64,000 bases of DNA from Sporopachydermia quercuum (taxonomy: Eukaryota), in assembly GCA_001599295.1 (NCBI GenBank), contig BCGN01000002.1, positions 2,108,001-2,172,000 on the forward strand, in the 5' to 3' direction. This document shows, piece after piece, positions 3,215 to 40,350 of this stretch. The first letter of the stretch is position 1. Each line of letters starts with the position of its first letter. The notes beneath the pieces were generated by a model. The model made no database searches, was not told where the DNA came from, and saw only the letters and a program-made list of their open reading frames with translations. Position numbers and translations under genes: made by a program.

Positions 3215-5801
3215 AGTAGAAATAATTAATTGCTGAGTTATGTATAAACGGTTTAAAACCTCTGTTGTCTAATGCAATGTATCCAATACTTTTTCTCACA
3301 AATAAGTGTAATTTGGATTATAAGTTCAACAAATAAGAGTACAAGTAATGCTCAAATCTAATGCAAGAATCCTTCTTCAGATATTTTAATATCAAATTAT
3401 TTTCCTTAAGATATCAATATTCTTTTGTTGTGTTCTTCTGCTCTTCTGTTGTTTTTTATTCTGTTCTGTTCCCACAGTCGTTCGTTGTACTCCAATCTCT
3501 CTGTGCCTCTCCCCTTAAAAGTAAGTAATCAATCACACACAACAAAAAACCTTATAATCTATCAGTTATATTAATGTTTTATCAATGTGAAAATATCTAT
3601 TCAAACAGAACGTGTTATTTGTTTGATTATTTATTCCCAGCTTTTATTTCTATTGATTTCTCAATCACAAGTAATGTTTCCTCCTCTTTCCCCTCTATTA
3701 TACATTCATATCACCCCAGCCAACTATTGGTTCACTTAATCTACACAAGTATAAGTTCTAGGGAATGTGTATCGTATCACTTTCTCTCGGTTATTGTATA
3801 ATAGCCTAGTGAATATTTTACCTATTTTATCGCAAATATCTGGTTACAGCAAACTTATATTGTCTGTATTATGATTGGCACCGATTGGCTCTTCAATCTG
3901 CGTTTATTCATTTAATCAATCATTATCTTCGTATGTATGTAGTCTTTTGTTTGGCAATAAAATGGGAAGCGGAAGGCAACCGACGTAGAATGAATAGGAC
4001 TAATTGTGCAATTTCAAGGATGTGTTATGGGACAGGTGGAGGTGGATCATCAGCGGTTCAAAGGATTCACTGATTGACAAATAGGAAAGAAAGATAAGAA
4101 GAGATGGAAATGAATTTCTATTTATAAAATAAATAAATTATTTTTAAATAACAGCGGTTTTGCATTAATTTGATAGGATGTAGTAATGAGATTGAATGTA
4201 AATGTATAGTTTGTTGGTGGCTATTATGTTGATGTTGAGTTTATCTGTTGATAAGCATGGGTAGTTATGTACCTTAATAATGAATATTATGGAAAACAGA
4301 TATTTCATTTTTTTCCTGGGAGTCTAGTATGTTGATTGTTTTATCACGATTTGTTTATCTACAGTAATAGAACACAGATCTCGATTGTACTACTGTTTGA
4401 AGTGATTTACTAATACGGACTGATTGCCTTATGGATAGTCGATCATCTGATGATGCGGAGTGAGAATCATACATAATAAAACAAGCAATTCGACCAGTTC
4501 TTTGATCTCTAACAGTTCAATCGATTCATGGATTTCTCTACCGAATTCATTCGNTTTGCTTTTTATGACTGTCAACTACAAATATCGACTACATTCTCCT
4601 GCCTATTGCTCAATAGCTATCGCCTTAGACTCGCATACAACTTCCTGTAAGCGTCTCAGGTTTCATAGAACTTTTATACCGCACCAATTGCTACCTGTTG
4701 TAAAAACCATAAATCTCAATAAAGACTACACGTACATTCATCCATATAATCCTATTACTATGTAACCAAATAATCAATTACTTATAACCTATCTTCTGTT
4801 AGCTATATCAATCTACAAAGTTTTTAAGACCTTTCATCAATCAAACAGATGCACATCAAAACTTCCTTATATTTATTGCCTTACTTAATCACGATCACTG
4901 CCCTTCATTCAACCTTTCAACCGTTGTAGCACTGTTAACAAACCTATTCCTGGGGTAAATATCAATCACGCATTATGACATATCTGGATTGTGATATGAC
5001 ACACCCATTCATCACCAATCAGATCGCAATCCAACGCCATTCGGTGATTATTGTATTTGGGCAGGGTAACTAATCATAAGAGCCAAGTATTACTCATCAA
5101 ACTTTGTTGCACGTGACTGGGTAAAATTTTAGAGTCACGAGAGTTCTAAAAAACAATAGACGATCATGGAAATTTTTCTTGATAGTTAACGCCGTGGTGG
5201 ATTCCAGATGATCATCTGTTTGATGTTAACAAATAACGCAACTCTAAAAAGTAATCAATCAAAAATATCATTATAATGAATATTGTAGTGGATAATTCGG
5301 GTTGGGGTTCAAAGAGCAGAGCTAGAATTAGTACCGAAANACGGGCATTGGAAGGGATAGAACAATAGAAGAGTTAAATATTAGCTTCTAACTCAACACT
5401 ATGGAGTTGTAGTATTAAGTAATTTCATTAATGGCTAAACTTTCTTTTAACCATCAAACACGAATTTTATTCAACGCAGACATAGCCACATTTCAATATT
5501 ACAAGCAATGTAACCAAGAAATGTTTCCATAAACCTACAAATGCAAAGTATGACTGACATTAGCATATAGTTTAAACTAATTATTAAAATCTATACACTA
5601 TAAAACCTCTAATAAAACCCATTAAGTAAAAGCCAGTGTACACCGATGTAGTAAATATATTAACGATTGTATGAAATGGTGGATAGAGAAACCATATAAT
5701 ACATCTCATCAAACTTTTAGTCTTCCTTGAAACCATGAGTTTTTATCAACAGCCATCAAGAAAGCCCGAAACACCTCCCATGTTTTCGTTCATTGAGAAA
5801 C

Positions 5802-6041
5802 TTACAATAAGAGAGCAGCAGCACCGGCAACGGCAGCACCTAGTAAACCAGCGTTGACACCATTGGCAAAAGCTCCATCAGGAGTGACAGTGCTAGAGGG
5901 TTGGGTTCCGTTTCCGCTACCGGTATCGTTACCGGAACCAGTATTGTTGGTAACACCAGTATCATTGGTATAATTGCTGAATTGAGCAGAAGCAACAGAG
6001 GCAGCGGCAACAGCAGCGATGACAGTCTTTGAGAATTGCAT
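5802..6041 (-). CDS. Small secreted, probably GPI-type cell-wall/stress protein, HOR7/DDR2/YDR524C-B-like (79 aa)
   Basis: Signal peptide MQFSKTVIAAVAAASVASA, an N/T/S/G-rich middle with several N-x-T sequons, and the hydrophobic C-terminus NAGLLGAAVAGAAALLL typical of this family. Confidence 0.85.
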   Translation of the reverse strand: MQFSKTVIAAVAAASVASAQFSNYTNDTGVTNNTGSGNDTGSGNGTQPSSTVTPDGAFANGVNAGLLGAAVAGAAALLL

Positions 6042-6239
6042 TTTTGAATAGTGTTGTATGTAAATTATCGATAATTATCAGCTTATACTAACTTCTAGTA
6101 ATTGCAATAGACTTTAGAATGTATACTTCGAAAACAAATTCAAATAAATTGAAGGCGAAAACTGAAAGAGAAGAAGAACATTTTTACATGATAATGGAAT
6201 TCTTCACTTATTTATAATATTTCTCTCGCAACTGAAAAC

Positions 6240-6303
6240 GAGGCGTTCATTGTCGCGAAGATAAAGAGAAAAGTTTAACTACTAGGTCTCGGTCTAAATA
6301 TAG
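6240..6303. promoter_or_regulatory. Cluster of cell-wall-stress elements (Crz1-like GAGGCG, SBF-like CGCGAA, Rlm1 CTA(W)4TAG)
   Basis: GAGGCG at 6240-6245, TCGCGAA at 6253-6259 and CTAAATATAG at 6294-6303, all 200-260 bp upstream of the small cell-wall gene ATG. Confidence 0.45.
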
Positions 6304-9300
6304 TAATAAGTTAAAGTTTTACAAATACCTTAACTTTAAATAAAAACGAAAAAATTTTAAGAGAAGACAGGAACGAATTTTTTTTTAAATTGGGCAGAAT
6401 AATAATCTTTGTAAAACGAGAGTTAGAACTTCTCATTGAAGAGAATTTGCTAGCAATCACAACAGATGCTCAGACTAATGGATTGTTTAGTTGTTCTCAA
6501 ATTGGAAAAAAGCCAGTTGAAGTGTTAAAGCAGAGCTTACAATAGTTACAATATAATTAATAATAGTATCACATAATTCTTGCTCGATGCAATGCATATT
6601 GGAATGTTGATGTATGTGTATTGGACTACGAACTTCGGTAAGAACTCTTTTTAGTCTATTATTGAACTTTCACTAGTAAAAATATGTTCTAGACCACGTC
6701 TAAACTAAGAAAACAGTAATTAGCATTGGAGAGCGATGAATCTCATAATCTAAGGTATTGAACAGCCAGTAGAAGGAAACGCAAAAAACTAAGGTTCAAA
6801 GTCTATTCTCAATTTGGCATAAGAAAGGTATAATTAGAGTTGTACCTTTCTATTTTGTTTCAATAACTTGATAGTATTACTTATGAAAGTAATATTCGAA
6901 TGGATATGGATGAATCTCTTAAATGGCCTAAAGATGAAAAGAAACCAGTTTTGACTTCGTACAATTAAAGAAAAGGTATTTTTCCTACCAAAACCAAGAA
7001 TTTACTGAGACTTATCACTCAACGATTACTTGGCCCATCTGCCTCACGTTCCCGGCCAAGAAGGTTAAAGAGATGGATTGAGACACTTTGCAGATCCTTG
7101 CGTGAAACTATGTTCCATACCGATAACCAATGCCTAACTATGCTGTCCAGAACATTCGACGACGACCGAGACTTGATTCACAGTGTAACAGACCTATTGA
7201 ACAATAGATGAGATAGATAGCTTCGAATTGTTTTAGTATACTTATTGATCATGATCAAAAATGAAGCTTGAAAGCTGTATTAACATTCTGAGGGTTGACG
7301 ATGTGAGACAGAAAAGTAAACAAAGCTGGACGCAAGGCTAGTCAGAAAGTTGTAACAAGGACATAAGGATAAGTGAGAAGGGTCCTCCTTCTCTTTGGTA
7401 TTTAGTGTAAGGAAATTGTCGATATGAACCAAAGAACATCATGGTCAATCAATCCAGTAATTGTTTGTTAAGTGTCTGTCTTGGAAAAGAGTTAGCGATT
7501 CTACGTCTCCCATTTCAGCAAATAATTGCTTCTCCATAACAATAGTTTATGGCGCCCCGCTAGGGAGCGGTAATGGCATAGCTATATTTGGGGTAGAACC
7601 CGATGCTCTCGGGAAAAACACTGGAACTATTTTCCGGCTATTGAAACGTTAGATGACAATGCTTTCAAATGTCATATTTTCGATAAACGGCTGATTTACT
7701 TCAACGTTAATTATAGGGTTTTTTTATCGAGAAAGTAGAAAAGTTCAAATGCAGTTGCGTAAAAAAGGTCTAGGCCATTGTTTTTGCACGTTCGTTCCCT
7801 AATCATGTGACGCTCCTCATAATAAATTCCCAATGAATGGAATGTAATTAGTCGTGGCGGTTCGATCGGCAGCTTCGTTCTTTGAATAATGGCGGTACCT
7901 CTTTCTCCAAGTTTTAGACAAAGGAAGAAACAGAATTAATGTCAGTTCTTGAATTGTCTTTGAATCTGATTATTAAGAAGCAAATGATATTTCGTCAGTT
8001 GAGACAATTTTTCTATTAACCTGATGTGATGATTATATGCTNAAAGTAAGTAATTCAAGGCGTCGGTATACCTCTGCACCGCATACTCTTAGTATCAGCA
8101 ACGAACCGTCCAGAATCTTTACTTGTGATTCGTTTTCATGGGATTCCACGGATTTGTACGCTTAGTTTAAGCGTATTTCTCCTCTGCTCCTTTGTTCTGA
8201 ACTCATCATATATCATTGACTAGCTTAACTGTAGCAACTTCCTAAGTACATTGGTGCCTATTACTGAGAAAATCTATACTTTTAAGTTTTAAATTTCGGC
8301 TTAAGGTTTACCCTAAAGTTTGACAAGAATGCAAGTCAGCGTTTTTAAGCGATTGGATTGCTCCAATAGGAAATGCTTCGTAAACTAAAACCTCGTGTGT
8401 TTGATTGGAATTATAGATAGTTGTTTGTCTGATGACCATGAGAAAATAAAGAAGAGGAAAAATAGTAGAACGCGATTAAAGAAGTGAAGAGGTTTAGTAT
8501 GGAAATGAAAAATTGTATAATATCATGAACTCACTGTTGTGGCAGCCTGCATAACAGATTAGTTGCTAATTAGTTGCTAATGAATTATCTTGATGATGAA
8601 TAATAAAGCTTATTGGAGACGAAGTGTGAAATGATGAAATGTTGTATGAAGTTTATGTAGAGCTTTGAAGATAAATTCTAGGTAAATCTGGCCAAAATAT
8701 GTCTACTTCCGGAACGTTAGATTCAATATGAGAGAATTGACTAAAACTAATCCGCCTTCTTGACAGTTGGATATCAGCTACCACTACATTTTCAGTTCAG
8801 CTTTCAAACAGTATACATTGAATCATATTCTTATTCATTATATTCATGGTATATGGCCTCCTTGTTAAATCGTCGGCTCATACTTTGAATATTCATGTCA
8901 ATATCCAATTTAAGCAATGAAAGTCCTTAATCTGNATCGATTATTAGTAGCCTAACCGATTTGAGAAATCACATCCCATCGCAAAATTTTTCGTCCCTTA
9001 AACGAGGACTCTCACCCTAATATTTCTTTCACTGTTTTCGTGCGCGGATATAGAGTTTCTTACTGAACAGAAAAGCGAAACAACGAAAATTTCATTCTTC
9101 GTGGTTTCCAATACAGCACTTATTATTCACTAAATGATTAAATCAGTTGAGTTTAGTTGGTTGCAGTTGACTTGCCTATTTCGATCACTTTCTATTCGTT
9201 TTCATTCGTTTTCATTAAATCGTTTTATTCTATAAATAGAATAAATGGAAAGGTGGATAGTTTGGGAAATATTCTCGCCAAGTAAGACTGATTATGATAT

Positions 9301-10144
9301 ATTAACAACTGAAGAAAGCTCAAAAGCTATTACTACGAATTGCAGTTCGAGAATAAATTTCTCACTTTTCGTCGCTCTTTCTATCAACCTCTTTAGTACT
9401 TTTCCTCCAAAAGTCAAGCAGAAGTCTTAACCAGTCTTCTTTTCTTCTGCTCCATCATTCGCAAATCTATTGCGTTACATCACCATCCATTGAATAATGC
9501 TTGAGGCACAAGCAAAATTTTTACTTTCACATCTTGACTAAAATAGTTTGCTAATGGAAAATTACTATTTTCAGTTAGTTGGTGTTTGGGATGCCTAAAA
9601 TTAAAATTTTAAACTTTAAACTTAAGATTTCATAACGCGTTAATTTACGTGTTCGTGTTAGACAGCGTTGATGGATAACTTTCGTTGCAAGCAGATTAAA
9701 GGAAATTACTGTTTGAAGTAAAAATCAATTATAAATAAAACTGAATTAAGTCTAGGCTTTCTGCAAATGAATTTATCGTGAGAAATTGGGAATTGGGAAT
9801 TGGAAACGTTCCTGGTACACTTCATTGAGTCACATTAGATCTTCTCAGGCATTTAGTATGTCTATACCTGGGAGTTCAGTCCTGCGACGGTACGGTGACC
9901 GGGNTCATTAGAAATACAAAGCGCAATAAATAAAACCCGGATTCCCGACTAACTGGGTGTCTCTAATAACTCGGAGCTACGTTATTAGAAATTTATTCCT
10001 GTAATTAACAAGAATTTATGAGAAAGGGATCAAATGCATAGTATTGTTCTTATTTTCTTATGTGTATTGCTATTATTAGTATTTGTTGATCCTCATTGTA
10101 TCAAAAGAGTTCATTTGATAAGTAACATGATACGGCTGTAGATA

Positions 10145-16642: not shown

Positions 16643-18286
16643 ATGAGAATCTACAAATCTCCTCGACCAGCTATTCCTTTGTTTAAAGGTAATATTGCTC
16701 AGCTCATTCGTGAAATGAGAACACCTGCTACTAATCCTGATAATCCTTTATACATCGATGCTGTCAATGGGGAATCACTATCATACAGGCAAATGCTGAA
16801 ATTCACAGAGAAAATGTCATACAATCTGAAACATTTATATGGGATTGGCTATGATGATGTCGTTACTTTTTTCTGTAATTCTCATGTTTACGTACCCGCT
16901 ATGCATCATGCTATCTTATCAGTAGGTGGTGTAGTATCACCTGCAAACGTTATGTATACACCAGAAGAATTGCTTCATCAACTGGAAATCACAAGACCAA
17001 AACTAATCATCTGCAGACCCTATTTGAAAGAAGTGGCTGAAAAAGCAGTTCAATTGGCTCGGCCGGAGATAGCTAATAATATTCGGGCAGTTGTCACTAG
17101 TCAGGAACTAGTAGTTCAAGTATATGGCGACACTAATGAAGACCATGTGCTTTACCCAATTGAAATAAAGGAAGAAGAAGCAAAGGAAAAATTAGCATAT
17201 CTTTGCTTTTCTTCTGGAACCTCAGGTAAACCGAAGTCTGTTATGACAACTCATGCGAATATCATAGCTCATACTCAACAAATTGCTGATAGTTTACCTT
17301 CATGGGATTCCACATCAGTCCATGCTGCCTGCATACCNTTAACTCACATGCTAGGTTTACTCCTTTATATATATGTATCATCATATATTGGTTCAAGAGT
17401 TGTTACGTTTGAAAAATTTGACTTAGAATTATTACTTCGGAAGATAGTTGAGTATAGAGTAACCCATGCAAGTTTAGTTCCGCCAATGCTAGTTTTGCTT
17501 GCCAAATCTCCAATCACCGATAAGTATAAATCTGAAGTGAACAAAACCTGGAGAGTTATCCTAAGCGCAGCTGCACCTTTATCAAGGTCTTTATGTGAAC
17601 AAGTTAATGAGAAGATCCCAGATGTTAAAATCATGCAAACATATGGTATGACTGAGATTTTACTAACTCACGTCAATGATCCAACCAATTTGACTGATTC
17701 TGGTTCAATTGGATTCTTGATGGCTAATCAACAAGCAAGACTTGTTGATGAAAATGACAATGATGTTCCTGAGGGTGAACGAGGGGAGTTGTTAATAAAA
17801 GGACCTACAATAATGAGAGGTTACCTGAATAACAAACAAGCAACTGAAGAAACTATTACCAAAGATGGTTGGATGAGAACTGGTGATATTGCTCTAAAGA
17901 CACCAGATGATCAATGGTTCATTGTCGATAGAAGAAAAGAATTGATAAAATCAAAGGGGAACCAAGTAGCTCCTGCTGAACTTGAAGCCATATTGCTGCA
18001 ACATCATGGGGTAGCTGATTGTGCTGTCACTGGCTATCATGTACCAGAAGAAGGCACTGAGTTACCAAGAGCATATGTGGTTTTGAAACATCCTCATGTT
18101 CATCCATTAACAATCAAGGAATGGTTTGACAGTAAAGTTGCCAAATACAAACGTTTATTTGGCGGAGTTGTGGTTTTAAACGAAATTCCTAAAAATCCTT
18201 CTGGTAAGATTCTCAGAAGACATCTTAGAGATCGTAAAGATGACTTTGCCCATGGCTTCAGTTTATCAAAAGAGTCCAAATTATAG
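16643..18286 (+). CDS. Peroxisomal adenylate-forming acyl/aryl-CoA ligase (4-coumarate-CoA-ligase-like, Yarrowia AAL-type), 547 aa
   Basis: AMP-binding motifs FSSGTSGKPK, YGMTE, RTGDI, DRRKELIK and IPKNPSGKILRR. The C-terminus is the PTS1 tripeptide SKL. Confidence 0.92.
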   Translation: MRIYKSPRPAIPLFKGNIAQLIREMRTPATNPDNPLYIDAVNGESLSYRQMLKFTEKMSYNLKHLYGIGYDDVVTFFCNSHVYVPAMHHAILSVGGVVSPANVMYTPEELLHQLEITRPKLIICRPYLKEVAEKAVQLARPEIANNIRAVVTSQELVVQVYGDTNEDHVLYPIEIKEEEAKEKLAYLCFSSGTSGKPKSVMTTHANIIAHTQQIADSLPSWDSTSVHAACIXLTHMLGLLLYIYVSSYIGSRVVTFEKFDLELLLRKIVEYRVTHASLVPPMLVLLAKSPITDKYKSEVNKTWRVILSAAAPLSRSLCEQVNEKIPDVKIMQTYGMTEILLTHVNDPTNLTDSGSIGFLMANQQARLVDENDNDVPEGERGELLIKGPTIMRGYLNNKQATEETITKDGWMRTGDIALKTPDDQWFIVDRRKELIKSKGNQVAPAELEAILLQHHGVADCAVTGYHVPEEGTELPRAYVVLKHPHVHPLTIKEWFDSKVAKYKRLFGGVVVLNEIPKNPSGKILRRHLRDRKDDFAHGFSLSKESKL

Positions 18287-19265
18287 CTTAGTACTCGCTA
18301 GTTAAACCAGCTTACAGAGTGGAGCTTTAATGATTAGTAATGATTTTATGAAAAATTTATGTCTGACTTATTCTTTGATTGATTTGTTTATCGTAGATTT
18401 AGTACAATGAAAAGAGAGTGAGAGATGTGCCAGTGTCACATGCAATAATGGGAGGAGACCTGTTGTCAGTTGAAGCGAGTTTGATGATAGAATGAAAGGA
18501 GTGGTTATTGGATTATGAAAAAGGATTTGTGTGTCCATTTCATTGGTTTATCTGGCTTCAATCAGATGTTTGTGGTATTTTATTTACATCGATTACATGA
18601 TTCTAGTTCTNTGGAACTAATCAGGTTAAATTTGCTGGCTTTGTGCTGCATGATTCTGCAATACTTGAATATGGTGTATCAACCTTAAACTCCTTTCAAA
18701 GATGGAGTTGTAAATCTTTGAATATTAATACTTTCTTCCATTATAGAATATCTAACAATGTAGAAATGGCAAAAGTTATGCATGAAGAAAATAATATGGT
18801 GTCTACTGAATCTTTAGAAATACTGCCTTTCTTACCTACCTTTCACCTAANAAGCAAACTCCAGCCGTCAATACAGTATAAATGCACAATTATGCATCAT
18901 ACTACAAATATGCAAAACACACATACTCATGCATAAACTCCTAATCCTTATTNACCTCATCTGAAGCATTTTTTTGTATTACTTCAAAAATGAGAATCTT
19001 ATAGATTCTTTTTTTCCTTTGCTAAATATCTTTATCCGTCATTAATATTTATCATTGTTTCTCTTCTTATTAACAATACTTTAGTCGAACGCTAACAGCT
19101 TCCATTTGAGAAATCCTTTAATACAGAACGTTTGTTACGTCTGCAGAAATTCCCACAGTTACTCAAAAGCTGTAGTGATTTATTAAAACATCATAACATG
19201 ACAAATGATTTTATTAACCATTTTCAGTCATTGTCCTTATCGTCACAATTATAATCCTACCGGAA

Positions 19266-22200
19266 ATGTCAATAGTCTATAGGAAATTTCCTACAGGCAG
19301 AGCAATTGNATTTTCAAACTGGAGAATATACAGCGAAAATGGGTTTCCTAAACGACATAGGCAATTTGGACAGCTCTTTGGTCGTGAATATTTACATACA
19401 TGCTCCTCTTCCCTCACAACGACATCAACATCAACGTCAATATCAACAGTTCCACCTAAAACCGTCAAACGGCTGAAGAGAACTCATTCATATTCAAAGC
19501 TGATGAAATCTCCTGTTGATAGACAGGAAGTTGAGTTTATTAGGTCTTTCAAATCCAAACTTGACTCCAGTGATGTGTTGAGCTGTTTAGATGCTGTTGT
19601 AAGCTATATATCAAAGAGTTATATTAATAGAATGAGTACAGAAGAAATTCAACCTTTACTTTCACTGATTTTGTTACAAGCTATCAGGCAAGACCAATCC
19701 TTGAAACTATTGCATGATGTTTACTCTCAAATGATCTACTTCAACATCGGGTTTGAGTATTTTGATAGCTCCTCTTTTGCTTGTTTATTGAAACTATTTC
19801 TAGCTAGCGGCGATAGTAATGGAATCACAAAAATAATGAACCATTGGATATTTGTGCTGAAACGTGATGCTGAAACACTTTTACTGGATCCAGGAGTCTT
19901 AACGCCTGAGGAGATCATGACCATAGTAAAGATTTCAAAAGTAGATTTTGATGCAGAAGAAGCAAATAAAAACAGAAGCGTAATTTCTAGGGAGAATAAA
20001 ATGTCGGATAGGCTTGGAATTGTGCATGAAAATGAAATAAATGAGAATGTCAATGAAAATAAGAAAAATAACATTGATAATAGTATCTCAGAAATAAAGA
20101 GCGATGAGAACTTCGGCTCTGGTTCTACAGCATCTATTCGTTTTGCTGAAGATATCATCCAGAAAAAATTCAAGTTTTCATTCGATCCTACAAAGTATCC
20201 ATTTATCAACGCCGATGATTTCTACAATCTTCCTTACTATGAACAATATAAACTACTATCAAAGGACGATCAGCTGCGATTTGATCGCCAATATAGAAAT
20301 TTCTGTTTTACCCGTCAATACCAGTTAGAAACAGGTCTCATCGAGTGCTCGAGGAAGGAGTTTATATATGATATACAGCACAATCAACATATGAGAACAG
20401 GTGTTATATTGAAACTGTGGAGCAATTATATCAACGAATGGGCATCTGATGTTGCAGCATTAATAGANAAGTTTAAAGCTGGTGATTTGGATCAGGCAGA
20501 TGAATTGAACACTGATATCAAGAAACTTAGGAAAGATCTGGAATTATCAACACTATTATTCAGTGTATGCAAACCAATAGACATTGCATATTTGATTATC
20601 ACTGAGACAATGATTTTTCTATCAAATGCGTCGGAGGAAGAGACTGGGTCACCAAGAGTTATATCATTAATAAGAAAGCTNAATAGAAGTTTGAACCAAT
20701 TGATGTTTAAGATGTTTAGAGCCACAGTTGAAGATATTAACAATAATGGGTTAGCCGCCAATGAGGGTACTGGGGATAGATTTAATAGTCTGTTTAGAAG
20801 ATTCCATTGGAATGACGTTGAATTAACCAGAATATCTGCTGGGCTTTTAAATCTTTTAATCAATGTGGCTACTGTGAACATTGTGAATGGAGAAATAGAC
20901 ATGAACTTTGACACTGCTAATAAGACCATACTCACTGACAGCAATTCTACAACTCCTGTGTTCCATACTCAAATTGTTATGTTAAGGGGTAAAAAATATG
21001 GCACTATTGATGTGATACCTCAATTTTATTCATACCTGGGCAAACTGCCTAATATGGAGGGAAAGCTTGACCCTCTCAGCTTCCCAATGTTAATTACACC
21101 AAAATTGAGAACCGGAATCACTTCTGGTGGGCATCACTTTATCCCTGGTCGGCTAGTTTCACATGTGAGATCAGAGGCTGAAGTTTTGAAAGTGATAAGT
21201 GAGTATTCGGACCGTAATAGATTAGACGCTTTATATGCAGCACTGGACGTTATTGGATCCACTGTTTGGGCTGTCAATAGGAATATCTTGAAAGTATTAT
21301 CAGCAGTTATGAAAAATGGGCTCAATTTTCTTGATGTTGCTATAGAAGTCGATAAAAGCCTACTAGAACAATCTGGAGATGCAGGTTTACCTCGGTGGGA
21401 AAGAAGGAAAGCAAAAGCTAAGTATGGGAACCAATTTGCAGAAGCTAACAATAATAAACATATATTATACCTTGCAAACCTGTTTGATAGATCAGGAGAT
21501 CAAATGTTCTTTTCTCCTATCATTGATTTCAGAGGAAGAGTTTATCCTTCTGCTGCTAGTTTTTCATTCATAAACACTGATCATATAAGAGCAATATTTA
21601 TGTTTTGGTATGGAAAACCATTAGGAAGAAAAGGATTAGATTGGTTGAAAGTTCATTTAGCCAATATGTACGGCATTGATAAAGTCTCCTTTAAAGATAG
21701 AATCAAATTTGTTGATGATCATATCAATGAGGTGTTTGATTCAGCAGAAAGGCCATTAGATGGAAAGAAATGGTGGTGCAAAGCTGATAAGCCATGGCAA
21801 GTATTATCTGTGTGTTTTGAGCTGGCTCAAGCCCTTAAAATGAGAAATCCTGAAAATTTTATCTCTCATTTGCCTATCCATTTGGATGGTAGTTGTAATG
21901 GATTACAACATTACGCTGCGCTAGGTAAAGATTATGAAGGAGGGTCACAAGTAAATTTGATAGATAGTGAACTACCCAGTGATATTTATAGTGTAGTATT
22001 GGAATTAGTTAAAAAGCGGATGGAAAATGATAAGGAGGATGGCAATGAAAGAGCTAAGATCATTCTACCTTATATGAATAGAAAGATAGTCAAACAGAGT
22101 GTCATGACGAAAGTTTATGGCTTGACAGTTTACGGTATGAATCAACAAGTATTAGAAAAGCTTAAGGACATTGTTAAACATGAAAAAATGGAAAAGAATG

Positions 22201-23222
22201 AAAGGGATCCAAGCTTTGAAAATGATATCTACACAATTTCCAGTTTATCAGAAGCTGAGCTAACGAATATATCTGGTTATATTGCCAGTAATATCGAAGA
22301 AGCAATATCTACACTTTTCTCAGGGTCAAAATTAATTCAAGACTGGCTGAATAATGTGGTATCATCAATAGGAACATCAATAAGATATGATACATACTGT
22401 GCCATTCAAAGGAGAAAAATAGATGAGTTGGATTTGATTGAACCGAATACGAGGTCTGTTATGTCAATTATATGGACATCGCCAATTGGATTACCTGTTG
22501 TTCAAACATATAAGCAAAAATCGACTATATCCGTAAGGACTTCATTGCAAGCAATATATATTGATGATCCTTTCTCTAAAGATAAGGTGGATATTAGAAA
22601 ACAAAGGAATTCTATTGCTCCTAACTATATTCATTCTCTAGACGCTTCACATTTATACTTGACTGCTTTAGCCTTGAGTAAGAAGACCTCAAATGTTGAT
22701 ATTACCAAGTATAATCCGAAGATTGAATTTGCCTCGGTTCATGATTCTTTCTGGACACATGCATGTGATATTGATGAATTGAATAGAACATTGAGACAAG
22801 AATTCGTTTGTATGTATAAAAGTGATCCTGTAGGTAGGCTCAGGAAAGATTTCATGGAGAGATATGATGGCTATTTATTGTATGGATATATTAGATGTGA
22901 TACTGAAGCAGGAAAAAGTGTTATGGCTTTCAGACAAAGGAATAACCTGCCGCAGTTATCAATTACTGTTAGAGAACTGAAGCTCGAGTATGACAGGTGG
23001 CAACTGATCAAAGATGGGAAAAACAGTAAAATAGAAACGCCTATGNGCATAATTGAGGATTTAAGGGCTGCGAGTGAAGTTGAATTGGATATTAAAGGTA
23101 AGAGAAATCATGGTAGAGTGAAATGGGTTCCAGTTTTCAAACTGCTGGAAATACCAGAAATTCCAGAGTCTGGAGATTTAAATGTAGAAGAAGTACTTAA
23201 CAGTAAGTATTTTTTCTCGTAA
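19266..23222 (+). CDS. RPO41: T7-phage-type single-subunit RNA polymerase, mitochondrial RPO41 family (divergent; possibly a paralog), 1318 aa
   Basis: DFRGRVYP; motif A PIHLDGSCNGLQHYAAL; motif B RKIVKQSVMTKVYG; PNYIHSLDASH; motif C FASVHDSFWTH; C-terminal YFFS. The R/S/T-rich N-terminus looks like a presequence and is followed by a PPR-like helix pair. Confidence 0.9.
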   Translation: MSIVYRKFPTGRAIXFSNWRIYSENGFPKRHRQFGQLFGREYLHTCSSSLTTTSTSTSISTVPPKTVKRLKRTHSYSKLMKSPVDRQEVEFIRSFKSKLDSSDVLSCLDAVVSYISKSYINRMSTEEIQPLLSLILLQAIRQDQSLKLLHDVYSQMIYFNIGFEYFDSSSFACLLKLFLASGDSNGITKIMNHWIFVLKRDAETLLLDPGVLTPEEIMTIVKISKVDFDAEEANKNRSVISRENKMSDRLGIVHENEINENVNENKKNNIDNSISEIKSDENFGSGSTASIRFAEDIIQKKFKFSFDPTKYPFINADDFYNLPYYEQYKLLSKDDQLRFDRQYRNFCFTRQYQLETGLIECSRKEFIYDIQHNQHMRTGVILKLWSNYINEWASDVAALIXKFKAGDLDQADELNTDIKKLRKDLELSTLLFSVCKPIDIAYLIITETMIFLSNASEEETGSPRVISLIRKXNRSLNQLMFKMFRATVEDINNNGLAANEGTGDRFNSLFRRFHWNDVELTRISAGLLNLLINVATVNIVNGEIDMNFDTANKTILTDSNSTTPVFHTQIVMLRGKKYGTIDVIPQFYSYLGKLPNMEGKLDPLSFPMLITPKLRTGITSGGHHFIPGRLVSHVRSEAEVLKVISEYSDRNRLDALYAALDVIGSTVWAVNRNILKVLSAVMKNGLNFLDVAIEVDKSLLEQSGDAGLPRWERRKAKAKYGNQFAEANNNKHILYLANLFDRSGDQMFFSPIIDFRGRVYPSAASFSFINTDHIRAIFMFWYGKPLGRKGLDWLKVHLANMYGIDKVSFKDRIKFVDDHINEVFDSAERPLDGKKWWCKADKPWQVLSVCFELAQALKMRNPENFISHLPIHLDGSCNGLQHYAALGKDYEGGSQVNLIDSELPSDIYSVVLELVKKRMENDKEDGNERAKIILPYMNRKIVKQSVMTKVYGLTVYGMNQQVLEKLKDIVKHEKMEKNERDPSFENDIYTISSLSEAELTNISGYIASNIEEAISTLFSGSKLIQDWLNNVVSSIGTSIRYDTYCAIQRRKIDELDLIEPNTRSVMSIIWTSPIGLPVVQTYKQKSTISVRTSLQAIYIDDPFSKDKVDIRKQRNSIAPNYIHSLDASHLYLTALALSKKTSNVDITKYNPKIEFASVHDSFWTHACDIDELNRTLRQEFVCMYKSDPVGRLRKDFMERYDGYLLYGYIRCDTEAGKSVMAFRQRNNLPQLSITVRELKLEYDRWQLIKDGKNSKIETPMXIIEDLRAASEVELDIKGKRNHGRVKWVPVFKLLEIPEIPESGDLNVEEVLNSKYFFS

Positions 23223-23373
23223 CATGTATATATAATATGAACAATCTAATGAAACTATGTATGTGATATTTAGTACGTAATATGAAATAGGAATAAGTAA
23301 AATGAACGGAGTATACTAGTATCCAAGTTTGTTGATCGTGGTGCGTTGTAGTACGTCGTGGCACTGCTATTCT

Positions 23374-25504
23374 CTATACTTTATAATTTACCAACTCTGA
23401 TATCAATTTCACTACAGCCACAGTCTTCTCTTCTTCAAATCTTCGGCAGAGCAACTGTAGGGATACAGGCATTCCATCATATAATTCACTACTATATAAA
23501 TCCATGTGAGTTTTATCAAAAGAACTAATAGGTGTAAACTCTTCCTCGGTATATTTCTTGTCGACATTCTTATCAACTTTCAACACTGGGAATGTCATTG
23601 CTGGACAATCTAGTACATTGACAAACCTTGTTATTACCGTTGAATGAATAGAATCCCCTGGTAAACATGAAGCAGAGGTCCAAGCAGGAACAATTATGCC
23701 ATCCAATGGTTCACCATTACCTGTTTTTTCTTTACTTGCTTCCCATTTATTGAAGAATTTTTGTTGGGCATTATATTTTCTCATTTCTAGATCCCAGTAA
23801 TCATTAATCGTGTAGTGGCGACTATTTTTTTCCAAATTAGCAACCGCATGAGCCAAATTCGGTATCAACGGTTCACCAGACAATTCAGCTAATTTGATTA
23901 TCTCATGATAATCATCAGAATGATAGATATCTGAGGATATATCAAACAACTCAGGTATATCTTCATTAGACCATTCAATTACCTCATGACCAGTTTTGAG
24001 GAGCAAATCATGNATATAATCAACAGCTCTGTTAATAGGAGGATGCGGTGTTAGCAAACTGTCATTTTTAATTAAACCAAATGTCAGTTTCTTCCCCGGA
24101 GATAGTATCTGTTGTACTATTTCATTTCTCCAAGGTAAGGGGACCACCCATGAATCTGATCTCCAAGGATCTAATGAAAACACTGCACTCAAAACATAGT
24201 GAATATCATCAGGACTTTTGCTCATTGGACCTATAACGCTAGACATGATATTTTGTCCGGCCATTGTATTAGCAACCTTGTAATAGGAAAGTCTATTAGA
24301 CGTTGGTCTTAGACCNTACATTCCATGGAAAGCACTTGGGATTCTCACGCTACCACCAATGTCAGTTCCCCAGCCAAAAGCTGTAGCAGAAGCACCAAGA
24401 AGACAACCTTCTCCACCTGAGGAACCACCAGATGACAGTTCGCGGTTTATCGAGTTTTGGGTGTAACCCATAAGATTTGATAGAGTTTCAGCAAACATCA
24501 TTGACATTGGTACTGCTGTTTTGACATAGAGTACAGCACCCAAAGTTCTTAGAGCTGTTACTATATTAGACTCATCATTTTCTGTTGGTAAAGGGTTATC
24601 AAGTAAACCTATATAACCTAGAGTTGTTGTTTTACCCTTAACGTTGAATTGGTCCTATAGNTGTTAGCAATAGATAAATATGTTATGAATTAGATATTCA
24701 GAGAGAAAGCTAAATGGACATGAAGAAGAAAGGCCGTAAGCAATGATGATGATCAACGGATTACTCATACACCCAGCAAGATATATTCATGCAGGTAAAA
24801 TTATGAATTAAGGATCAGTAACCACTGTGATCATTGGAGCCTTGTCCCGATAATTGTAAATTTCGCTAAGTGGCCAGAATATCTATAATACCAAACAGAA
24901 GATGAAAGTGAATGGTGTTCCTAGAAAAACAGCTCAATTAGCCAAATTACAACTATTGGGCATAGAATACTCTAAAAGGTGGTAGTTGAAAACTTAATAA
25001 TTCATTATAAATAGCCACTTTCAAATTCAAACGTACCTTAAGAGAAATGGGGACACCATGTAAAGGGCCTATAGTTTTACCTGTTGATTCAAAGAACGCA
25101 TCAAGTTCTCTGGCCCGTTCTAAAGCCTCATCAAAAAACACTTCCACCAAACAATTACACTGAAGCCGTTATTATACAAATCCCATCCAGTTTTACCAGT
25201 TTATACTACCAATCAATAGTCTTTACAGAATTAATCATACCAATTGATGAGCTAATGCTGCTCTATGACAATAAGCTTTACAGACTTCAACGCTCGATAA
25301 TTCTCCAGATGATATCTTATTTGACAACTGAACAAGAGTCAAATGACAGATAAAGTTCTCACGTTCATTTGTCAACGAATTGATAAATATTCCCGCATTT
25401 TTGGCCTCCTCAGATGATGGGATTTTATCTAACTTCCATTCATCAGGTATAGCGTTTGTGATTTTATCTCTATGAGCTTTAGCTTTTAATTTATAATCAC
25501 TCAT
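23374..25504 (-). CDS. Amidase-signature enzyme (acetamidase/Amd2-like), 555 aa, 2 introns
   Basis: Exons 25504..25241, 25159..25037 and 24654..23374. Introns are GTATGA..CAG and GTACGT..TGCTAAC..TAG. Splicing rebuilds GPLHGVPISLKDQF (catalytic Lys); GGSSGGEG and GTDIGGSVRIPSAF are also present. Confidence 0.92.
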
Positions 25505-25594
25505 GCTTATAAGTATGCTTNAAAGGCATCAGATGTGTTAGGTTATGATTGACTTGTCCCAGTATAGCATGACAATTTGACCATCAATTGGATG

Positions 25595-26279: not shown

Positions 26280-28336
26280 TTAATATTCTTCCATTTCCTC
26301 GTAAGAATCAGCTCCTACTTCTTCATAATCCTTTTCTAAAGCAGCCAGATCTTCCCTTGCTTCGCTAAATTCACCTTCTTCCATACCTTCACCAACGTAC
26401 CAGTGGACGAAAGCTCTCTTATTATACATTAAATCAAACTTATGGTCAATTCTATTCCAAGCATCAGCAATCGCAGTAGTATTACTTAACATACAAACAG
26501 CTCTATCGACCTTAGCCAAATCTCCATCAGGAACAAATTGGGGAGGTTGGTAGCAAATACCAATCTTGAAACCAGTAGGACACCAGTCGACCAGCTGAAT
26601 GTTCTTCTTAGCTTTAATGCTAGCAACTGCACTTGTGACTTCCTTTGTAACAACATCACCACGGTAAAGTAAACAAGTAGCCATGTATTTTCCACTTCGA
26701 GGATCACACTTGACCATTTGGTTAGTTGGTTCGAAACAAGTGTTGGTGATCTCAGNAACAGAGTTTGCTTCATGGTGAGCCTTAGCAGAAGAGATCACTG
26801 GAGCGTAAGAAACTAAAGGGAAATGGATTCTTGGATATGGGACCAAGTTGGTTTGAAATTCGTTCAAATCAACGTTTAAGGAACCATCGAATCTCAACGA
26901 TGCTGTTACAGAAGAGACTACTTGAGCAATTAATCTGTTCAAGTTATCAAAAGAAGGACGAGCAATATCCAAATTACGTCTGCACATGTCATAGATAGCT
27001 TCATTATCAACCATAAAAGTACAATCAGAGTGTTCTAAAGTAGTATGTGTAGTTAAGACAGTATTGTATGGTTCAACAACCGAAGTGGAAACTTGAGGAG
27101 CAGGATAAACAGCAAATTCAAGCTTGGATTTCTTACCGAAATCAATTGATAATTGTTCTAATAACAAGGCACCGAAACCAGAACCGGTACCACCACCTAA
27201 AGAGTGGGTGAAAAGGAATCCCTGTAAACCTCCACAGTTATCAGCAACCTTTCTGACTCGATCCATCACTTGATCGATCAACTCCTTACCAATTGTATAA
27301 TGACCTCTGGCGTAGTTATTGGCGGCATCTTCCTTTCCTGAGATCAATTGCTCAGGATGGAAAAGGTCTTTGTATTTACCGGTTCTCACTTCATCGATCA
27401 CATTGGGTTCCAAATCAACATAAATAGTTCTTGGGACATATTTTCCAGATCCTAATAATTTCGTCGTTAAAAACTTTGATCAAATCTCATTTTATTATTC
27501 AAAACACAGCATGACGACTTACCAGTTTCAGAGAAAAAAGTAGAGAATCCTTCTTCTCTCTTACCAAGAGATTGGTGTTCTGGTGCTAGGTATCCATCGG
27601 GCTATTGGATAGTTAGAATTTGATTTCCAACAATTGCAAAATGTCGAAGTCTTAATTTAATGGTTGAACAATCTTTATCCAACTTCTCTACTGGTTATAA
27701 CATCACCACTTACTTGAATACCATGTTCCAAACAATATAACTATAATAACGTTAGTAACTGAGATCGAATCACACCAACTATTTCCTTGTCTTCTTCATA
27801 TCCATAACGTTCAACAAAAAAACAATAAAATACCTACCTCCCAGCAAGAGTTACCAATTTGACAACCGGCTAGCAAAAATGTTAGAATCCACAATACTAG
27901 AGATAACGCACCTTTGCCCATACACAATGACTATTATGCATCTCACTAAATCAAGTTGTCATGTTCCACTTTTCAATGATCCAGCATATTCTATCCCTGA
28001 GATCTTCATAAAAAATTCCTTTCATCCACGTACCTTGACCAACTAGTGATTAACTTGTTAGTATCCTATTCTGAACAATCAACAATATAAAGTACATTAG
28101 CACAATACCATGGATCAATCCAATCAATCGATAGACCATAACAAGTAGCAATCATAAACAATCAAATGTCACAAAATCATTCTTATATCAACAACCTCTT
28201 GCTGGATTCTTATCCTTTTTCCAAACACACGCTTCTATTATGATTCATTCAATTTGCTATCATGCCTATCCATGTATTGTAATGCTCAATAACCTATTTC
28301 CAAGCACATACCATTTATACTGATAACTTCTCTCAT
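26280..28336 (-). CDS. TUB1: Alpha-tubulin, 447 aa, 6 exons
   Basis: Exons 28336..28312, 28042..28034 (9 nt), 27869..27838, 27740..27714, 27601..27523 and 27451..26280 sum to 1344 nt. They give [34 protein letters not shown]...GGGTGSG...EEMEEY. Confidence 0.97.
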
Positions 28337-34585: not shown

Positions 34586-35462
34586 TCAGTTCTTCAATAA
34601 GGGCTTCTTGTCACTCAAAATGTCAGGTAATTCGCTTTCAGAGATTCTTTCAAACTCCGAGTCTGCGCTTATTTGATCATCATCAAGTTCATCGACAGAG
34701 GAGAAAAATCCTCTTGGTTTCTCATCATTCAACGAGCCCAAAGATGAATCAGAACGGTCTCTAATAATAACAAAACTTCTTTTACCTGTACTTGAGCTAC
34801 CTTCTAATGCTTGCGATTGAGCTTCACTTTTAAAACTGGCAGTAGCTGAGGTATGAACAGTATCTGCATGAAGTGGTTCTGGCGATTCATAGATCACAGG
34901 ACTTTTAAATGCATCACTAAAAGGATCAACCGTATGTTTTGATGAATCTGTATCATTATTTGGGTGAAAGAATAGAGTATCATGCGACTCAGCACCGGTT
35001 GCATAGCATGAATCATCAGGTTTATCCTTAGAAACCTTCGAAGAAGAAGATTCTTTGGAACAATCAGATTTCTCGACTTCTTCAGGATTCTCCTCAGTCT
35101 TCTCATTTTTCTTCAGTCTAGCTAATCTCTCTTGTCTTATCTTATCAGACACCTCAAGAATCTTCAGTTCAAATTCATCTCTTACATTTAACATGGCGGC
35201 CTTCAACTCTTCTCTATGTAAATACAGGATGTAGCCAGCAGAAACAGAACCACCTACCACTATAAATATGACGTTAGACTCACAACTTATCATTATTGTA
35301 TCAATCTAGGCTTGTAACAATTCCCTATGACTATCAAATATCTCTCCTTCGATATCAATAGAACAGGGAGTATCGTCCCACAATGAGTCTCTATCTCACT
35401 AGCTGTACTTCAAACTTACAGGTGCCCATAACAAAGCTACTAACAAGAGCAGGCCAAGGCAT
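34586..35462 (-). CDS. Uncharacterised protein with N-terminal membrane anchor, coiled coil and acidic/Ser-rich tail; 238 aa, 1 intron
   Basis: Exon 1 is 35462..35420. The intron is 35419..35260 (GTAAGT..TCTAAC..TAG). Exon 2 is 35259..34586 and joins in frame, giving MPWPALVSSFVMGTLVGGSVSAGYILYLHREELK... The start in the ORF track (35293) lies inside the intron. Confidence 0.75.
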
Positions 35463-38400
35463 GATTAAATGTTCAGGTATACTAATAAATACAATTCTCT
35501 TATGGTAAAATCAATAATATTTACCAACGTAAATCCTTTCGCAATCATCAGCTCTNCAAGGAAATTGTACGTATATTTTTACCATTTCAAAGGGTGTTTG
35601 GGAGGTAGGTATATTGAGGGTTAGAAGATGGCGAATTGTTTGATAAGGAGTACAAAGCGCTTCCCCAGTTTTTTTGAGATTTGATGTCACATGGAATTCG
35701 CCTTCAATTATTGGAATGGGTATTTGGAGCTGTGCGTTGGGACAAGGGAATTGTTGATTATGTGAACTTATAAACAGGAAGCAGGGATGGTTATCTAAGT
35801 TTGGTTAGAGATACCTAGGGCAGTGGCTTAGTTGGGTATTAGCTGAACTTGATGTAGTTTGCTCCTGTTTACAGAAATGATAATGGTTAGTTCTGAGACA
35901 ATACTTGACATTTTTAGAGTGGCTTATGTTATGAGAATTACAATCAACGGGATCAGCCAAATACGGTTCTCCGAGAATGGTGATGAGTTCTTCGAAGTAT
36001 AATCTATAAAGTCGCATTCGAATTTTTGTTCTACAATCTTTATTTCAGTAATGATTATCATACTTGATTTATTCTCTTCTTTCTTCAGTAGAGTCGACAA
36101 TTCAGTGATCGATCGGGCTTATTCTATCATGTAAAATGGGAGAGACCTAAATATCCTCCCCAACAAGCATCCGGATTCTCTACCGAATTCCCTGCTGATT
36201 CCGCAACAACGAAAATTACAAGACTCAAAATTGAACCTTCTTGTAGCTAAGTACCTCACTACTAGATAATATACAACTGCAGTAGCAACTATTCTCATCT
36301 TGAAACTCTCCGAAAGTTTTACGACTTGTTTCTTTGATAAAATAAATACCTTTTGCCGTTGAAACGAAATAAAGTTAGTGTTTAGTGGACCCATTAAATT
36401 GAAACCTCCAATAGAGCCTTCAGCTGATTGCAAATAAAGTTAACGTTTAGTTGTATCGTTAAATGGAACTTTTTTTGAGATAACCAAGAATAAAAAGGTA
36501 NCATAATAATTCTCACAAACTTTAAAACCTTTGGATAATGTATTCTTTTTTTTTTTCAATAGTTTTTGGGGATGTTCTGAGAAAGAAATAACAATATTAT
36601 GTTTATACGAATACCCACCAAACTTGAGGACTTATAATACCATATATAACTCACTTTATGTTCATTTATTTTCATTGATCCCAAGGTAGCAATCTTATAA
36701 CGAGAGATGATCAATCAATGACTGATAAAAGCTAACCAGAAAGTAATAGCAAGTGCTCTCTTTGAAATTCACCCGGTTCAGATGGCCAAAAACGTCGTTG
36801 GAATTGTTTTCAATAATACTTCACAATTGATCTACCATTTCCTTTTTTATTTTTGAGCATTTTCTTTACTTTTTCTGTCAATCGAGAGTTTTTCATTAAT
36901 GTTTCCAATAAGTCCTCAGAGAAGGCTAATTTTACAGAAAATAATCAAACGATTGCTGTAACCAGACTCAGTAGCTTTAGAATAGGATAGTTTATTTTAT
37001 TGTATTGCACAATCATTATTTGAAGGCCGGAATTACCGATTCTAGGGTCTTTAACGGACAGCAATGACTAATCGACTCAGTTGACGTGGTAAGACACATT
37101 GCTATTTTATCAATTGAAGTGATTCAAATGGGATAAATAATTGTAAAGCAGCAAAAGTAATCGAAGCTAAGGAGATCGTTTTACAAAAGAATATGCTTGC
37201 TACATATAGTGATACCATCATCAGAAAAATTATCTTCTTCTGCTTAAAATACTATAACTACAGTTTGGCGTGAAGCCCGTTTATTGACTATAAGCAATTC
37301 GAATATACAGAACATACATAAGTTTATTTATAAGGAAGTATTGCATAAACCTTTGAGGTACTATTTCTTCTTTTACTACTATTTGATTGATCACACTGGG
37401 ACGCAGAAAGAGAATTCTAGATATTAATGAAGAATATAGTTATAATGTAGATTGCTTTTTCCACATTGAAAGTTCTCATACCCATAAAACGAGAAATTAC
37501 TCTAGAAGGATTACTTAAATACAGTCACGCAACAGAAGGAGATTGATATACTAAATAGAATTCACTGCCCCGACTTGAATTAACTTACCCATTAACTGTT
37601 CTTCCTACTCACATTATGAGGTAAACAATTATAATAAAATTAAGTAATCAAGCTAGTAGAAGCCTTATATACCCTCCAAGAAGTATCAAATGGTTGGTTT
37701 TCTTTCAGTGTGGGGTCTCATTAGGTCGCACATCGGATAAGATTATCTTTATTCGGTACTCGGCGATCATTGCAACACGAATGTTTGACGATTCCTCAGT
37801 CTTGCAATCAAGATACATATAAAACACTACTAGCTGGTCTTCAAACCCGGTCTGCTATATGTTGGTACAAACAGAATATTTGCTCCGAAAAAGTACTTAT
37901 ATTATTGATTGATACGGACGATATCCAAATATTGTCTTGAAGTTGTTGAGTATTTATATCGACAAAATACAACCTCGATTGATTCATCAAATCAAAAAAT
38001 ATGTATAACAAAGAGTTTCATTTCTATTACGAAATCTTAGATGCAGTGAATGAATTCAGTCGGAACCTCGATCAAATATTATTAAAAGTATTTTTTGGCA
38101 ACTATCATATTAATGAGCCAGGAACGGACAGAACAGAAGTTTTAGCTCTTTGAAAAATATACCTAATATAGAACTGTCTCATCTCAGACCCTAATAACCT
38201 TCTTTTAATTTTTTTTTTGAACCGGCATTTAATCTTCAATGAACGAAGTAATAAAGTGTGCTTGAAAATCCCGGGCTACAACCCTAAAATTGGTTTCAGT
38301 TTATATAATAATAATTAATTATTTAAGTTTGCTTAGCCTTGAATTTGAATCTTGTCTCTGAGATTCTCGATTTGATTGCCTGCCTGATTCAGTCATTTTA

Positions 38401-39965: not shown

Positions 39966-40350
39966 TACTAACTAATTTATTAATCTCTTTCCCCTTAGTT
40001 ACCAAATTGGCAATGCGAGCTTGGTTGTATGACAGAATTTGATTTTAAAACTTTACATACTATTTCCGAACTTTATTATCATATGCTCATCCACCGTTTC
40101 AAGTAACTATTTAGCTCTACTTATTCCCCATTCTCATTTCCATTTAAAGATAGTCTCATCCAGTGTTTATCGATTATGTTCTGTATTTCTTATTTTCTTT
40201 TATCTATTATACATATTTTATTTTCTTTTTCTCTTTGAATATATCAAAAAGCTGTATTTAATGTATAATTGATTCAACAGCGATACTAACATTCACTTAC
40301 AAAGTATCCAATTTCCTTTTATATAATTGGATACATTTACTATTTAACAG
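39966..40350 (+). other. Probable pair of 5'-leader introns upstream of the 309-aa gene
   Basis: TACTAAC at 39966, a pyrimidine tract and TAG at 39996-39998. A 28-nt exon follows, then GTATGA at 40027, TACTAAC at 40284, and an acceptor at AAG 40304 or CAG 40350. Confidence 0.5.

Follow-up and report, generated by a model that had tools for sequence, protein, structure and literature searches.

Whether Sporopachydermia quercuum possesses one mitochondrial RNA polymerase (mtRNAP) or two is the question raised by an open reading frame (ORF) of 1318 codons plus stop on the forward strand of contig BCGN01000002.1 (GenBank assembly GCA_001599295.1). The ORF (19266..23222, +) lies in the 64,000-nucleotide stretch analysed here (the window, positions 2,108,001 to 2,172,000 of the contig; coordinates below are those of the window) and encodes a protein of the RPO41 family. 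To our knowledge, fungal mitochondrial transcription is generally described as the work of one polymerase (Rpo41) and one factor (Mtf1), and several organellar T7-type polymerases are known so far from plants. The initial annotation of the locus, made from the sequence alone, proposed a second, divergent mtRNAP, and the comparative evidence supports this central idea. On balance we favour the explanation that the protein is not the canonical RPO41 ortholog and instead belongs, as a very divergent member, to a second and fast-evolving family of RPO41 paralogs, in which the elements holding Mtf1 are remodelled and which would act as a specialised mitochondrial polymerase.

Enzyme type

The ORF runs uninterrupted from the ATG at 19266 to the stop at 23222, with an in-frame stop 48 bases 5' of this ATG, since the stop-to-stop frame begins at 19218. 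The encoded protein matches the Pfam families PF00940 (RNA_pol; 535.4 bits against a cut-off of 22, model positions 1-448 of 448, aa 784-1318) and PF14700 (RPOL_N; 65 bits against a cut-off of 30.1, aa 350-665); RPOL_N and the collinearity with Rpo41 are canonical Rpo41 features. In a sequence search of solved structures, yeast Rpo41 was the top match (512 bits, E 2e-152, a single alignment over aa 301-1318 with 6YMV), followed by human POLRMT (308 bits, E 1e-90) and T7 RNA polymerase (215 bits, E 1e-62). An AlphaFold2 model of aa 480-1318, built from an input alignment of 30 rows (mean predicted local distance difference test, pLDDT, 82.4; predicted template modelling score 0.79; pLDDT >=90 in 400 of the 839 residues), gave the same ranking in Foldseek: yeast mtRNAP initiation complexes came first (E 2e-51 to 7e-47, template modelling (TM) score 0.67-0.73), then human POLRMT (E 1e-38) and T7 (E 1e-32, T7 chains from rank 31 down). 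Phage T7 and other factor-independent single-subunit RNA polymerases share the fold and the catalytic motifs, but a phage affinity was not borne out by these scores, and the window protein has the N-terminal domains and the C-terminal region of the fungal enzymes. The fungal nuclear mitochondrial type, as opposed to a phage enzyme, had been read correctly by the initial annotation.

The catalytic aspartates of motifs A and C are both kept (D874, D1160), as are all seven residues of the nucleoside triphosphate (NTP)/hybrid site (R756, R758, Y760, Y908, K943, M947, Y951), which correspond to the residues R827, R829, Y831, Y979, K1014, M1018 and Y1022 named for Rpo41 in the passages of 10.1101/2020.04.13.038620 on this site. 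The two catalytic and seven NTP/hybrid positions are invariant across all 61 aligned rows, and in the alignment A1 each of the 20 rows keeps D315, K384, Y392 and D601 (A1 numbering) together with DFRGR. The product of the ORF is thus probably a single-subunit RNA polymerase of the T7 type, catalytically competent and of the kind that fungal nuclei encode for mitochondria.

Gene-specific divergence

Over its whole length, the window protein is 27-32% identical to the Rpo41s of 11 named yeasts (29% for S. cerevisiae), which are 33-69% identical among themselves. The SSL2 encoded in the same window is 76-85% identical to that of the same 11 species, whose mutual range is 75-89%. Because SSL2 shows normal identity, the divergence of the polymerase is, by this comparison, gene-specific, in agreement with what the initial annotation had concluded from conserved neighbours. 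A search with aa 640-1318 against 5.8 billion clustered proteins gave 3515 matches, the best 120 of which were all 34-41% identical. Among the matches listed, the closest database relatives of the organism reach 83-86% identity for SSL2 and 41% for RPO41; the exact SSL2 and RNR2 sequences of this organism were not found in the protein collection, and the polymerase had no self match there.

A separate family of RPO41 paralogs

The odd features of the window protein are common to proteins of Sugiyamaella and Blastobotrys and to several further proteins in the alignment. FastTree placed it in a long-branched clade of 13 among 121 rows and in a clade of 21 among 58 chosen rows (support 100 in both). 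In a maximum-likelihood (ML) tree of 35 chosen rows (IQ-TREE, LG+C20 with posterior mean site frequencies, PMSF), the family formed a clade of 12 with a value of 100 in the Shimodaira-Hasegawa-like approximate likelihood ratio test (SH-aLRT), the sister of the window protein being P0113 (95). An ML tree with Rpo41 rows was a check that the initial annotation had suggested, and it sets the window protein outside the canonical clade.

The family has a signature of its own. A two-residue insert (R742 S743 in the window protein, 21489..21494, +) separates the thumb helix from G(D/E)xFYF; its columns are filled in 23 of 23 family rows and in none of the 38 canonical rows. The family states DGSC (canonical DGTC) and (I/V)APN (canonical FPPN) are present in the window protein as DGSCNG and IAPNYIHSLD, while in VMTKVYG it carries a K that is neither the canonical N (VMTNVYG) nor the family S/T (VMT(S/T)VYG). 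DGSC is also found in the canonical protein of W. sorbophila and IAPN in the canonical P0086, so these states are not exclusive to the family; both are presumably T7 RNA polymerase states as well. A family profile run against 1.84 billion representatives matched 12 proteins at 1057-1647 bits, the next match (931 bits) being the canonical W. sorbophila protein; the family is therefore small. Ten of the 12 had been in the profile, and the two new ones (P0259, P0320) carry the family signature. The divergent type was seen in none of the 80 metagenome loci compared, of 581 confirmed. Even within the family the window protein stands apart, with a whole-length identity of at most about 32% to any relative.

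The same holds for the conserved columns. The blocks PKPW..GGY, RCDxNYKLEIARAF, FPHNxDFRGRAYP and PHxNHLGxD, which the initial annotation had taken as the canonical forms, are indeed conserved in the canonical fungal rows aligned. Of 164 columns conserved at >=95% in the 38 canonical rows (Saccharomycotina, four Pezizomycotina-type rows and S. pombe), canonical rows keep 155-164 and the window protein keeps 124, the fewest among the 61 aligned rows. The 40 lost columns bear out unusual substitutions at this locus, but for 19 of them the loss extends to half or more of the other family rows; 13 losses are private, compared with 0-10 in other family members. About half of the odd substitutions are, in this alignment, family traits. 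Judged by the trees and the shared signature, the window gene is not a fast-evolving ortholog and belongs to a separate long-branched family.

Coexistence with the canonical polymerase

Both types were found together in three named species. In Trichomonascus vanleenenianus, P0270 (1432 aa, branch 0.2-0.3) falls in the canonical clade and P0248 (1060 aa) in the family, and their genes are on separate contigs (383 and 284 kb); Geotrichum candidum has the canonical DV454_001059 (P0007) and the family member DV454_004153 / CDO53110.1 (P0301 / P0299); and Blastobotrys adeninivorans has the canonical A0A060T4A8 (P0452) and the family member A0A060T809 (P0091). The family and canonical signatures were verified in all six proteins, and the presence of both copies in the three species indicates that the family is paralogous to RPO41. 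The six named species checked are all Dipodascales (Dipodascaceae, Trichomonascaceae), as is the genus Blastobotrys; they include G. candidum, T. vanleenenianus, M. paraingens and S. lignohabitans, which carry the family type. The duplication that the initial annotation proposed is thus supported by a paralog family but is not private to this genome: the comparisons indicate that it is old and common to Dipodascaceae and Trichomonascaceae.

Database names do not separate the two copies. Both paralogs of B. adeninivorans and of T. vanleenenianus bear the same mitochondrial/DNA-directed RNA polymerase name, the family copy of G. candidum is labelled similar to YFL036W RPO41 and its canonical copy hypothetical protein, and the family member of S. 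lignohabitans carries the label Rpo41p. Orthology-based transfers from these labels are therefore wrong for one of the two paralogs.

Because three species have both types, a canonical RPO41 elsewhere in the genome of this organism is quite likely. Among the matches listed (the best 120), the family type alone was seen in S. lignohabitans, M. paraingens (SAPINGB_P002023) and G. galactomycetum, and the canonical type alone in T. ciferrii and W. sorbophila; since these five species are drawn from the best 120 matches, seeing one type does not mean absence of the other. A different view of the same data is that the window enzyme belongs to the family and is nevertheless the sole mtRNAP here, the canonical copy having been lost and all mitochondrial transcription and priming having passed to it. 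The fully intact catalytic core, the presequence-like N-terminus and the 349 aa before RPOL_N (nearer the canonical 287-414 than most family models) agree with this view, as do S. lignohabitans and M. paraingens. We consider it unlikely: all three named species in which both types were seen have retained both, the single-type species do not amount to absence, and the Mtf1-holding elements are the least conserved ones, which would be odd for a sole promoter-specific polymerase.

Two proteins of the database occupy positions close to this organism. P0135 is the sister of the window SSL2, and P0086, a canonical Rpo41, branches basal to the later yeast orders, in the same tree position; if the two came from one lineage, a relative of this organism would have a canonical Rpo41.

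Divergence of the thumb and of the Mtf1-supporting hairpin

According to the passages of 10.1101/2020.04.13.038620 on the factor contacts, MTF1 is held in S. cerevisiae by the tip of the thumb helix and by the K613-P632 hairpin. The mean identities of the corresponding regions (canonical-canonical / family-family / canonical-family) were 68 / 52 / 49% for motifs A-B, 60 / 60 / 48% for the DFRGR region, 56 / 50 / 35% for the intercalating hairpin, 49 / 28 / 15% for the pre-thumb and thumb, and 45 / 18 / 12% for the MTF1-supporting hairpin, indicating that the catalytic core is constrained and the factor-docking elements are not. Two canonical elements, the LPPAPP..DP segment of the pre-thumb and RCDxNYKLEIARAF, have been lost from the family. 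In the window protein, the pre-thumb and thumb (aa 696-744, 21351..21497, +) have LPPAPP..DP shortened and RCDxNYKLEIARAF lost; the altered thumb block AEANNNKHILYLA corresponds to aa 725-737, and the AlphaFold2 model has one long helix here (aa 710-743).

The equivalent of the MTF1-supporting hairpin (aa 536-564, 20871..20957, +) is longer than the canonical one and unlike it, with 7% identity to canonical rows (45% among the canonical rows themselves) and a tip of low confidence (model residues 70-81, pLDDT <50); P0113 lacks this hairpin entirely. The intercalating-hairpin equivalent follows (aa 565-584, 20958..21017, +), with L573 R574 in the place of S. cerevisiae H641 N642. As far as these alignments tell, family members show moderate conservation of the promoter-contacting hairpin and of the specificity-loop region, and the Mtf1-clamping thumb and hairpin have, in our judgement, rather probably been remodelled or freed from constraint.

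Origin of the family

The free ML tree sets the family beside Pezizomycotina (SH-aLRT 80; 98 in FastTree). Constraining it as the sister of the canonical Dipodascales Rpo41 costs 11 log-likelihood (lnL) units and is not rejected by the approximately unbiased (AU) test (p=0.117), so that the data fit a family that arose by duplication along the Dipodascales stem or earlier and then accelerated. Three whole-genome duplications have been proposed in Dipodascales, and the part of PMC12424943 that places them does so within the Dipodascus/Geotrichum and Magnusiomyces lineages. As a source of the paralog they were rejected, because a placement within these lineages cannot account for a family that Trichomonascaceae share. 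In contrast to the Dipodascales carriers of the family, this organism has an SSL2 outside the sampled Dipodascales clade: a tree of this one gene, without outgroup and with the plant match P0134 left out, puts the window SSL2 and P0135 between that clade and other orders.

The position beside Pezizomycotina, and not beside the canonical Dipodascales proteins, would also suit a family that arrived by transfer, or whose work is something other than ordinary mitochondrial transcription, be it in a different compartment or on an extrachromosomal element; the acidic N-termini without presequence in many family gene models point the same way. This explanation is improbable in our view, given that the Dipodascales-stem duplication is not rejected, that the named members are all Dipodascales, that the window protein is collinear with fungal Rpo41 down to the YFFS end and has a presequence-like N-terminus of its own, and that the G+C of the gene is the same as that of its neighbours.

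Proposed role and weight of the evidence

The preferred reading of the window gene as a second RPO41 paralog leads to the following proposal. The protein would be imported into mitochondria, as its basic N-terminus suggests, and would be a second, specialised RNA polymerase there, able to begin RNA chains though it lacks the canonical grip on Mtf1, whether aided by some other factor or unaided. It might serve start sites of its own, or it might make the primers for mitochondrial DNA (mtDNA) replication, while bulk transcription would be carried out by a canonical Rpo41 encoded elsewhere in the genome. Primer synthesis is also possible for Rpo41 and POLRMT. A specialised role is, we infer, the most economical reading of this polymerase, and the neofunctionalisation put forward by the initial annotation may apply to it; we likewise infer the canonical copy in this genome, the mitochondrial location, the altered factor use and a specific role.

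Several observations weigh against this reading. Only three of eight named Dipodascales species show both types among the best 120 matches. The end branches of the window protein (1.59) and of P0113 (1.98) are the two longest (median 0.41), so long-branch attraction to the family may play a part, and the extra residue after DFRGRxYP that is present in the other family rows shown is absent in both. Constraining these two proteins to the canonical rows makes the tree 59 lnL units worse and is rejected (AU p=0.00018), with a group that was defined after the first tree had been seen and a test that shares the long-branch weakness of the model. All 13 private losses, among them Q873L next to the catalytic Asp, could mean weakened function, and none of the sequencing runs listed with the gene is an RNA run. 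As regards the mitochondrial location, family models of the Geotrichum type have acidic N-termini and no presequence.

The N-termini of P0111, P0242, P0244, P0245 and P0072, none with a presequence, have a common acidic motif, ..GPIK.D.LGNIN.SLD....LDVE..FG. The Geotrichum-type genes may truly begin in an exon further upstream; if they do not, the import of this sub-family departs from the usual route.

The long branches, together with the lack of any close relative of the organism in the databases (SSL2 83-86% and RPO41 41% at best), would also suit a direct ortholog of canonical RPO41 that, without any paralogy, has simply evolved fast in a long-branch lineage, as long branches can attract one another. 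We regard this as hardly tenable. SSL2 reveals no general acceleration, the window protein has the two-residue insert and the states DGSC and IAPN in common with the family, the family is paralogous in three species, and placement with the canonical rows is rejected. The initial annotation had itself allowed for a fast ortholog with a branch typical of its lineage; the protein falls instead in a separate clade (SH-aLRT 100).

The private losses bear on yet another explanation, that of a relaxed, decaying duplicate with little or no function left. It would agree with the smallest number of canonical-invariant columns kept among the 61 rows, with the second-longest branch of the 23 family rows (after P0113) and with the two ambiguous bases of the ORF, out of four, that must change a residue. 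It is very improbable, however, for a frame of 1318 codons that has stayed open in DNA of 35% G+C, that has kept all nine catalytic and NTP-site residues (the catalytic-site residues being retained in all rows of alignment A1) and for which the model is confident.

Layout of the polymerase gene

The intact 1318-aa ORF, motifs A, B and C, the YFFS end and the peptide blocks quoted in the initial annotation were all found where it had placed them. The N-terminus (aa 1-45, 19266..19400, +) is presequence-like, as had been claimed, in composition only: its first 40-45 residues contain 8 K+R and 1-2 D+E (2 over the whole 45), and the first acidic residue is at position 24. The N-terminal extension (aa 16-349, 19311..20312, +) has no Pfam family match, and its X-free part gave leads similar to pentatricopeptide repeat (PPR) proteins in a protein atlas (0.87-0.89, all under the bar of 0.9), to be taken as a lead only. 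The RPOL_N domain spans 20313..21260 (+) and includes PKLR in the place of canonical PKPW (aa 612-615, 21099..21110, +), W615R being a private loss.

Beyond the thumb, the altered block FSPIIDFRGRVYPSAASFSFINTDHIRAIF quoted in the initial annotation corresponds to aa 749-778 (21510-21599), and DFRGRVYP followed by the altered block ASFSFINTDHIRAIFMFWYGKPLG lies at 21525..21632 (+), with T/DxxGR kept and R756, R758 and Y760 retained. The RNA_pol catalytic domain occupies 21615..23219 (+). Within it are motif A with D874 (21870..21917, +), where HLDGSCNGLQHY at 21879-21914 bears the family state DGSC; motif B, or O-helix, with K943, M947 and Y951 (22080..22124, +); the specificity-loop region to IAPNYIHSLDASHL (22506..22670, +), with the family state IAPN; and motif C with D1160 (22734..22760, +), whose block VHDSFWTHA is at 22737-22763. 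A private insert just before motif C is of low confidence (model residues 664-671, pLDDT <50). The C-terminal YFFS is at 23208-23219 (+).

Four single N (19309, 20468, 20681, 23046) give four X in the translation, two of which necessarily alter a residue; as a gauge of constraint they are too few (4 in this ORF, 14 across all ORFs >=200 aa). Over 19000-23400, Logan contigs from three sequencing runs of one organism, which may be the source of the window itself and was sequenced in two studies, match throughout with 0 differences and 0 gaps. Each run gave a single record, and no second copy >=80% alike in DNA was found in the contigs of these three runs, a search that is uninformative for a canonical paralog, which would be far below this threshold.

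Surroundings of the gene

The polymerase gene is flanked by an AMP-binding ligase (16643-18286) and by a minus-strand amidase from 23374, the acyl-CoA ligase and amidase flanks that the initial annotation had noted. The amidase gene (23374-25528, -) apparently has three exons, in the stop-to-stop frames 23374-24654, 24953-25168 and 25235-25528; its ATG-started ORF of 377 aa covers only positions 103-444 of the Pfam Amidase family, and an N at 24316 falls within a TAN codon (Tyr or stop). The alpha-tubulin frame (26280-27479, -; 399 aa, stop-to-stop) begins within the Tubulin domain, so that at least one short 5' exon must be present upstream, beyond an intron. A 1,3-beta-glucan synthase gene of the FKS type (59597-64000, +) has a rather divergent N-terminus and continues past the end of the window. 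There is no ATG-started ORF >=200 aa over three long spans (3215-10144, 35294-40518, 41449-47967), and as the amidase and tubulin genes show introns, split genes may lie in them.

The window carries 45 N positions (for example 4554, 19309 and 24316), 41 of them isolated and one run of four (59194-59197) just upstream of the glucan-synthase ORF. Their density is 0.55 per kb in ORFs >=200 aa versus 0.81 per kb elsewhere, and they may be ambiguous or heterozygous calls converted to N.

Relation to known polymerases and significance

Set beside canonical Rpo41 (S. cerevisiae YFL036W; PDB 6YMV/6YMW, 8C5U), the window protein has the same domain order (RPOL_N, then RNA_pol), the same fold (TM 0.67-0.73), catalytic and NTP-site residues, DFRGR and YFFS end; it differs in its 29% identity, the 40 of 164 invariant columns changed, the insert after the thumb, the lost thumb motif with its shortened pre-thumb, an MTF1-supporting hairpin unrelated in sequence, and its place outside the canonical clade. 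With the second RPO41-type proteins of Dipodascales it shares the clade, the insert, DGSC, IAPN and states of the FWYGKPLG type, and it differs from them in its identity of at most about 32%, a longer N-terminal extension, 13 private losses versus 0-10, and the missing residue after RxYP.

The closest parallel is found in plants, where, in the passages of PMC3022604 and PMC3895441 on the subject, duplications of the nuclear T7-type gene gave several organellar polymerases with divided labour (RpoTm, RpoTmp, RpoTp). The fungal duplication also concerns a nuclear gene for a T7-type polymerase, but it is independent, no plastid is involved, and a division of labour in fungi would be an extension of our reading. 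In the full-text literature searched, from which most subscription journals are missing, no paper was found to report that RPO41 is duplicated, or has a second copy, in any yeast or other fungus; phrase matches for a second or duplicated mitochondrial RNA polymerase were confined to three papers on plants. The matching passages in PMC8979003 were unrelated. Nor was a published name found in this literature for the divergent RPO41 paralogs of Dipodascales.

A broader and more tentative possibility is that the mitochondria of Dipodascales, and of one or more neighbouring lineages, work with two polymerases, with Rpo41-Mtf1 alongside an old second T7-type enzyme without the Mtf1-docking thumb and hairpin, which might initiate alone or with an unknown partner and might serve as an mtDNA primase or at a separate class of start sites; the window gene would be its most divergent known member. 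Since B. adeninivorans is a genetically tractable yeast, its family member would be an entry point for study. Annotation is also concerned, as present names confuse the family and canonical RPO41 copies. The altered Mtf1-docking surfaces would amount to a natural experiment, one that could show which regions an mtRNAP requires in order to initiate with a factor. If a conserved and catalytically intact second polymerase is indeed present, a fungal division of labour (for example transcription versus primer synthesis) would become directly testable.

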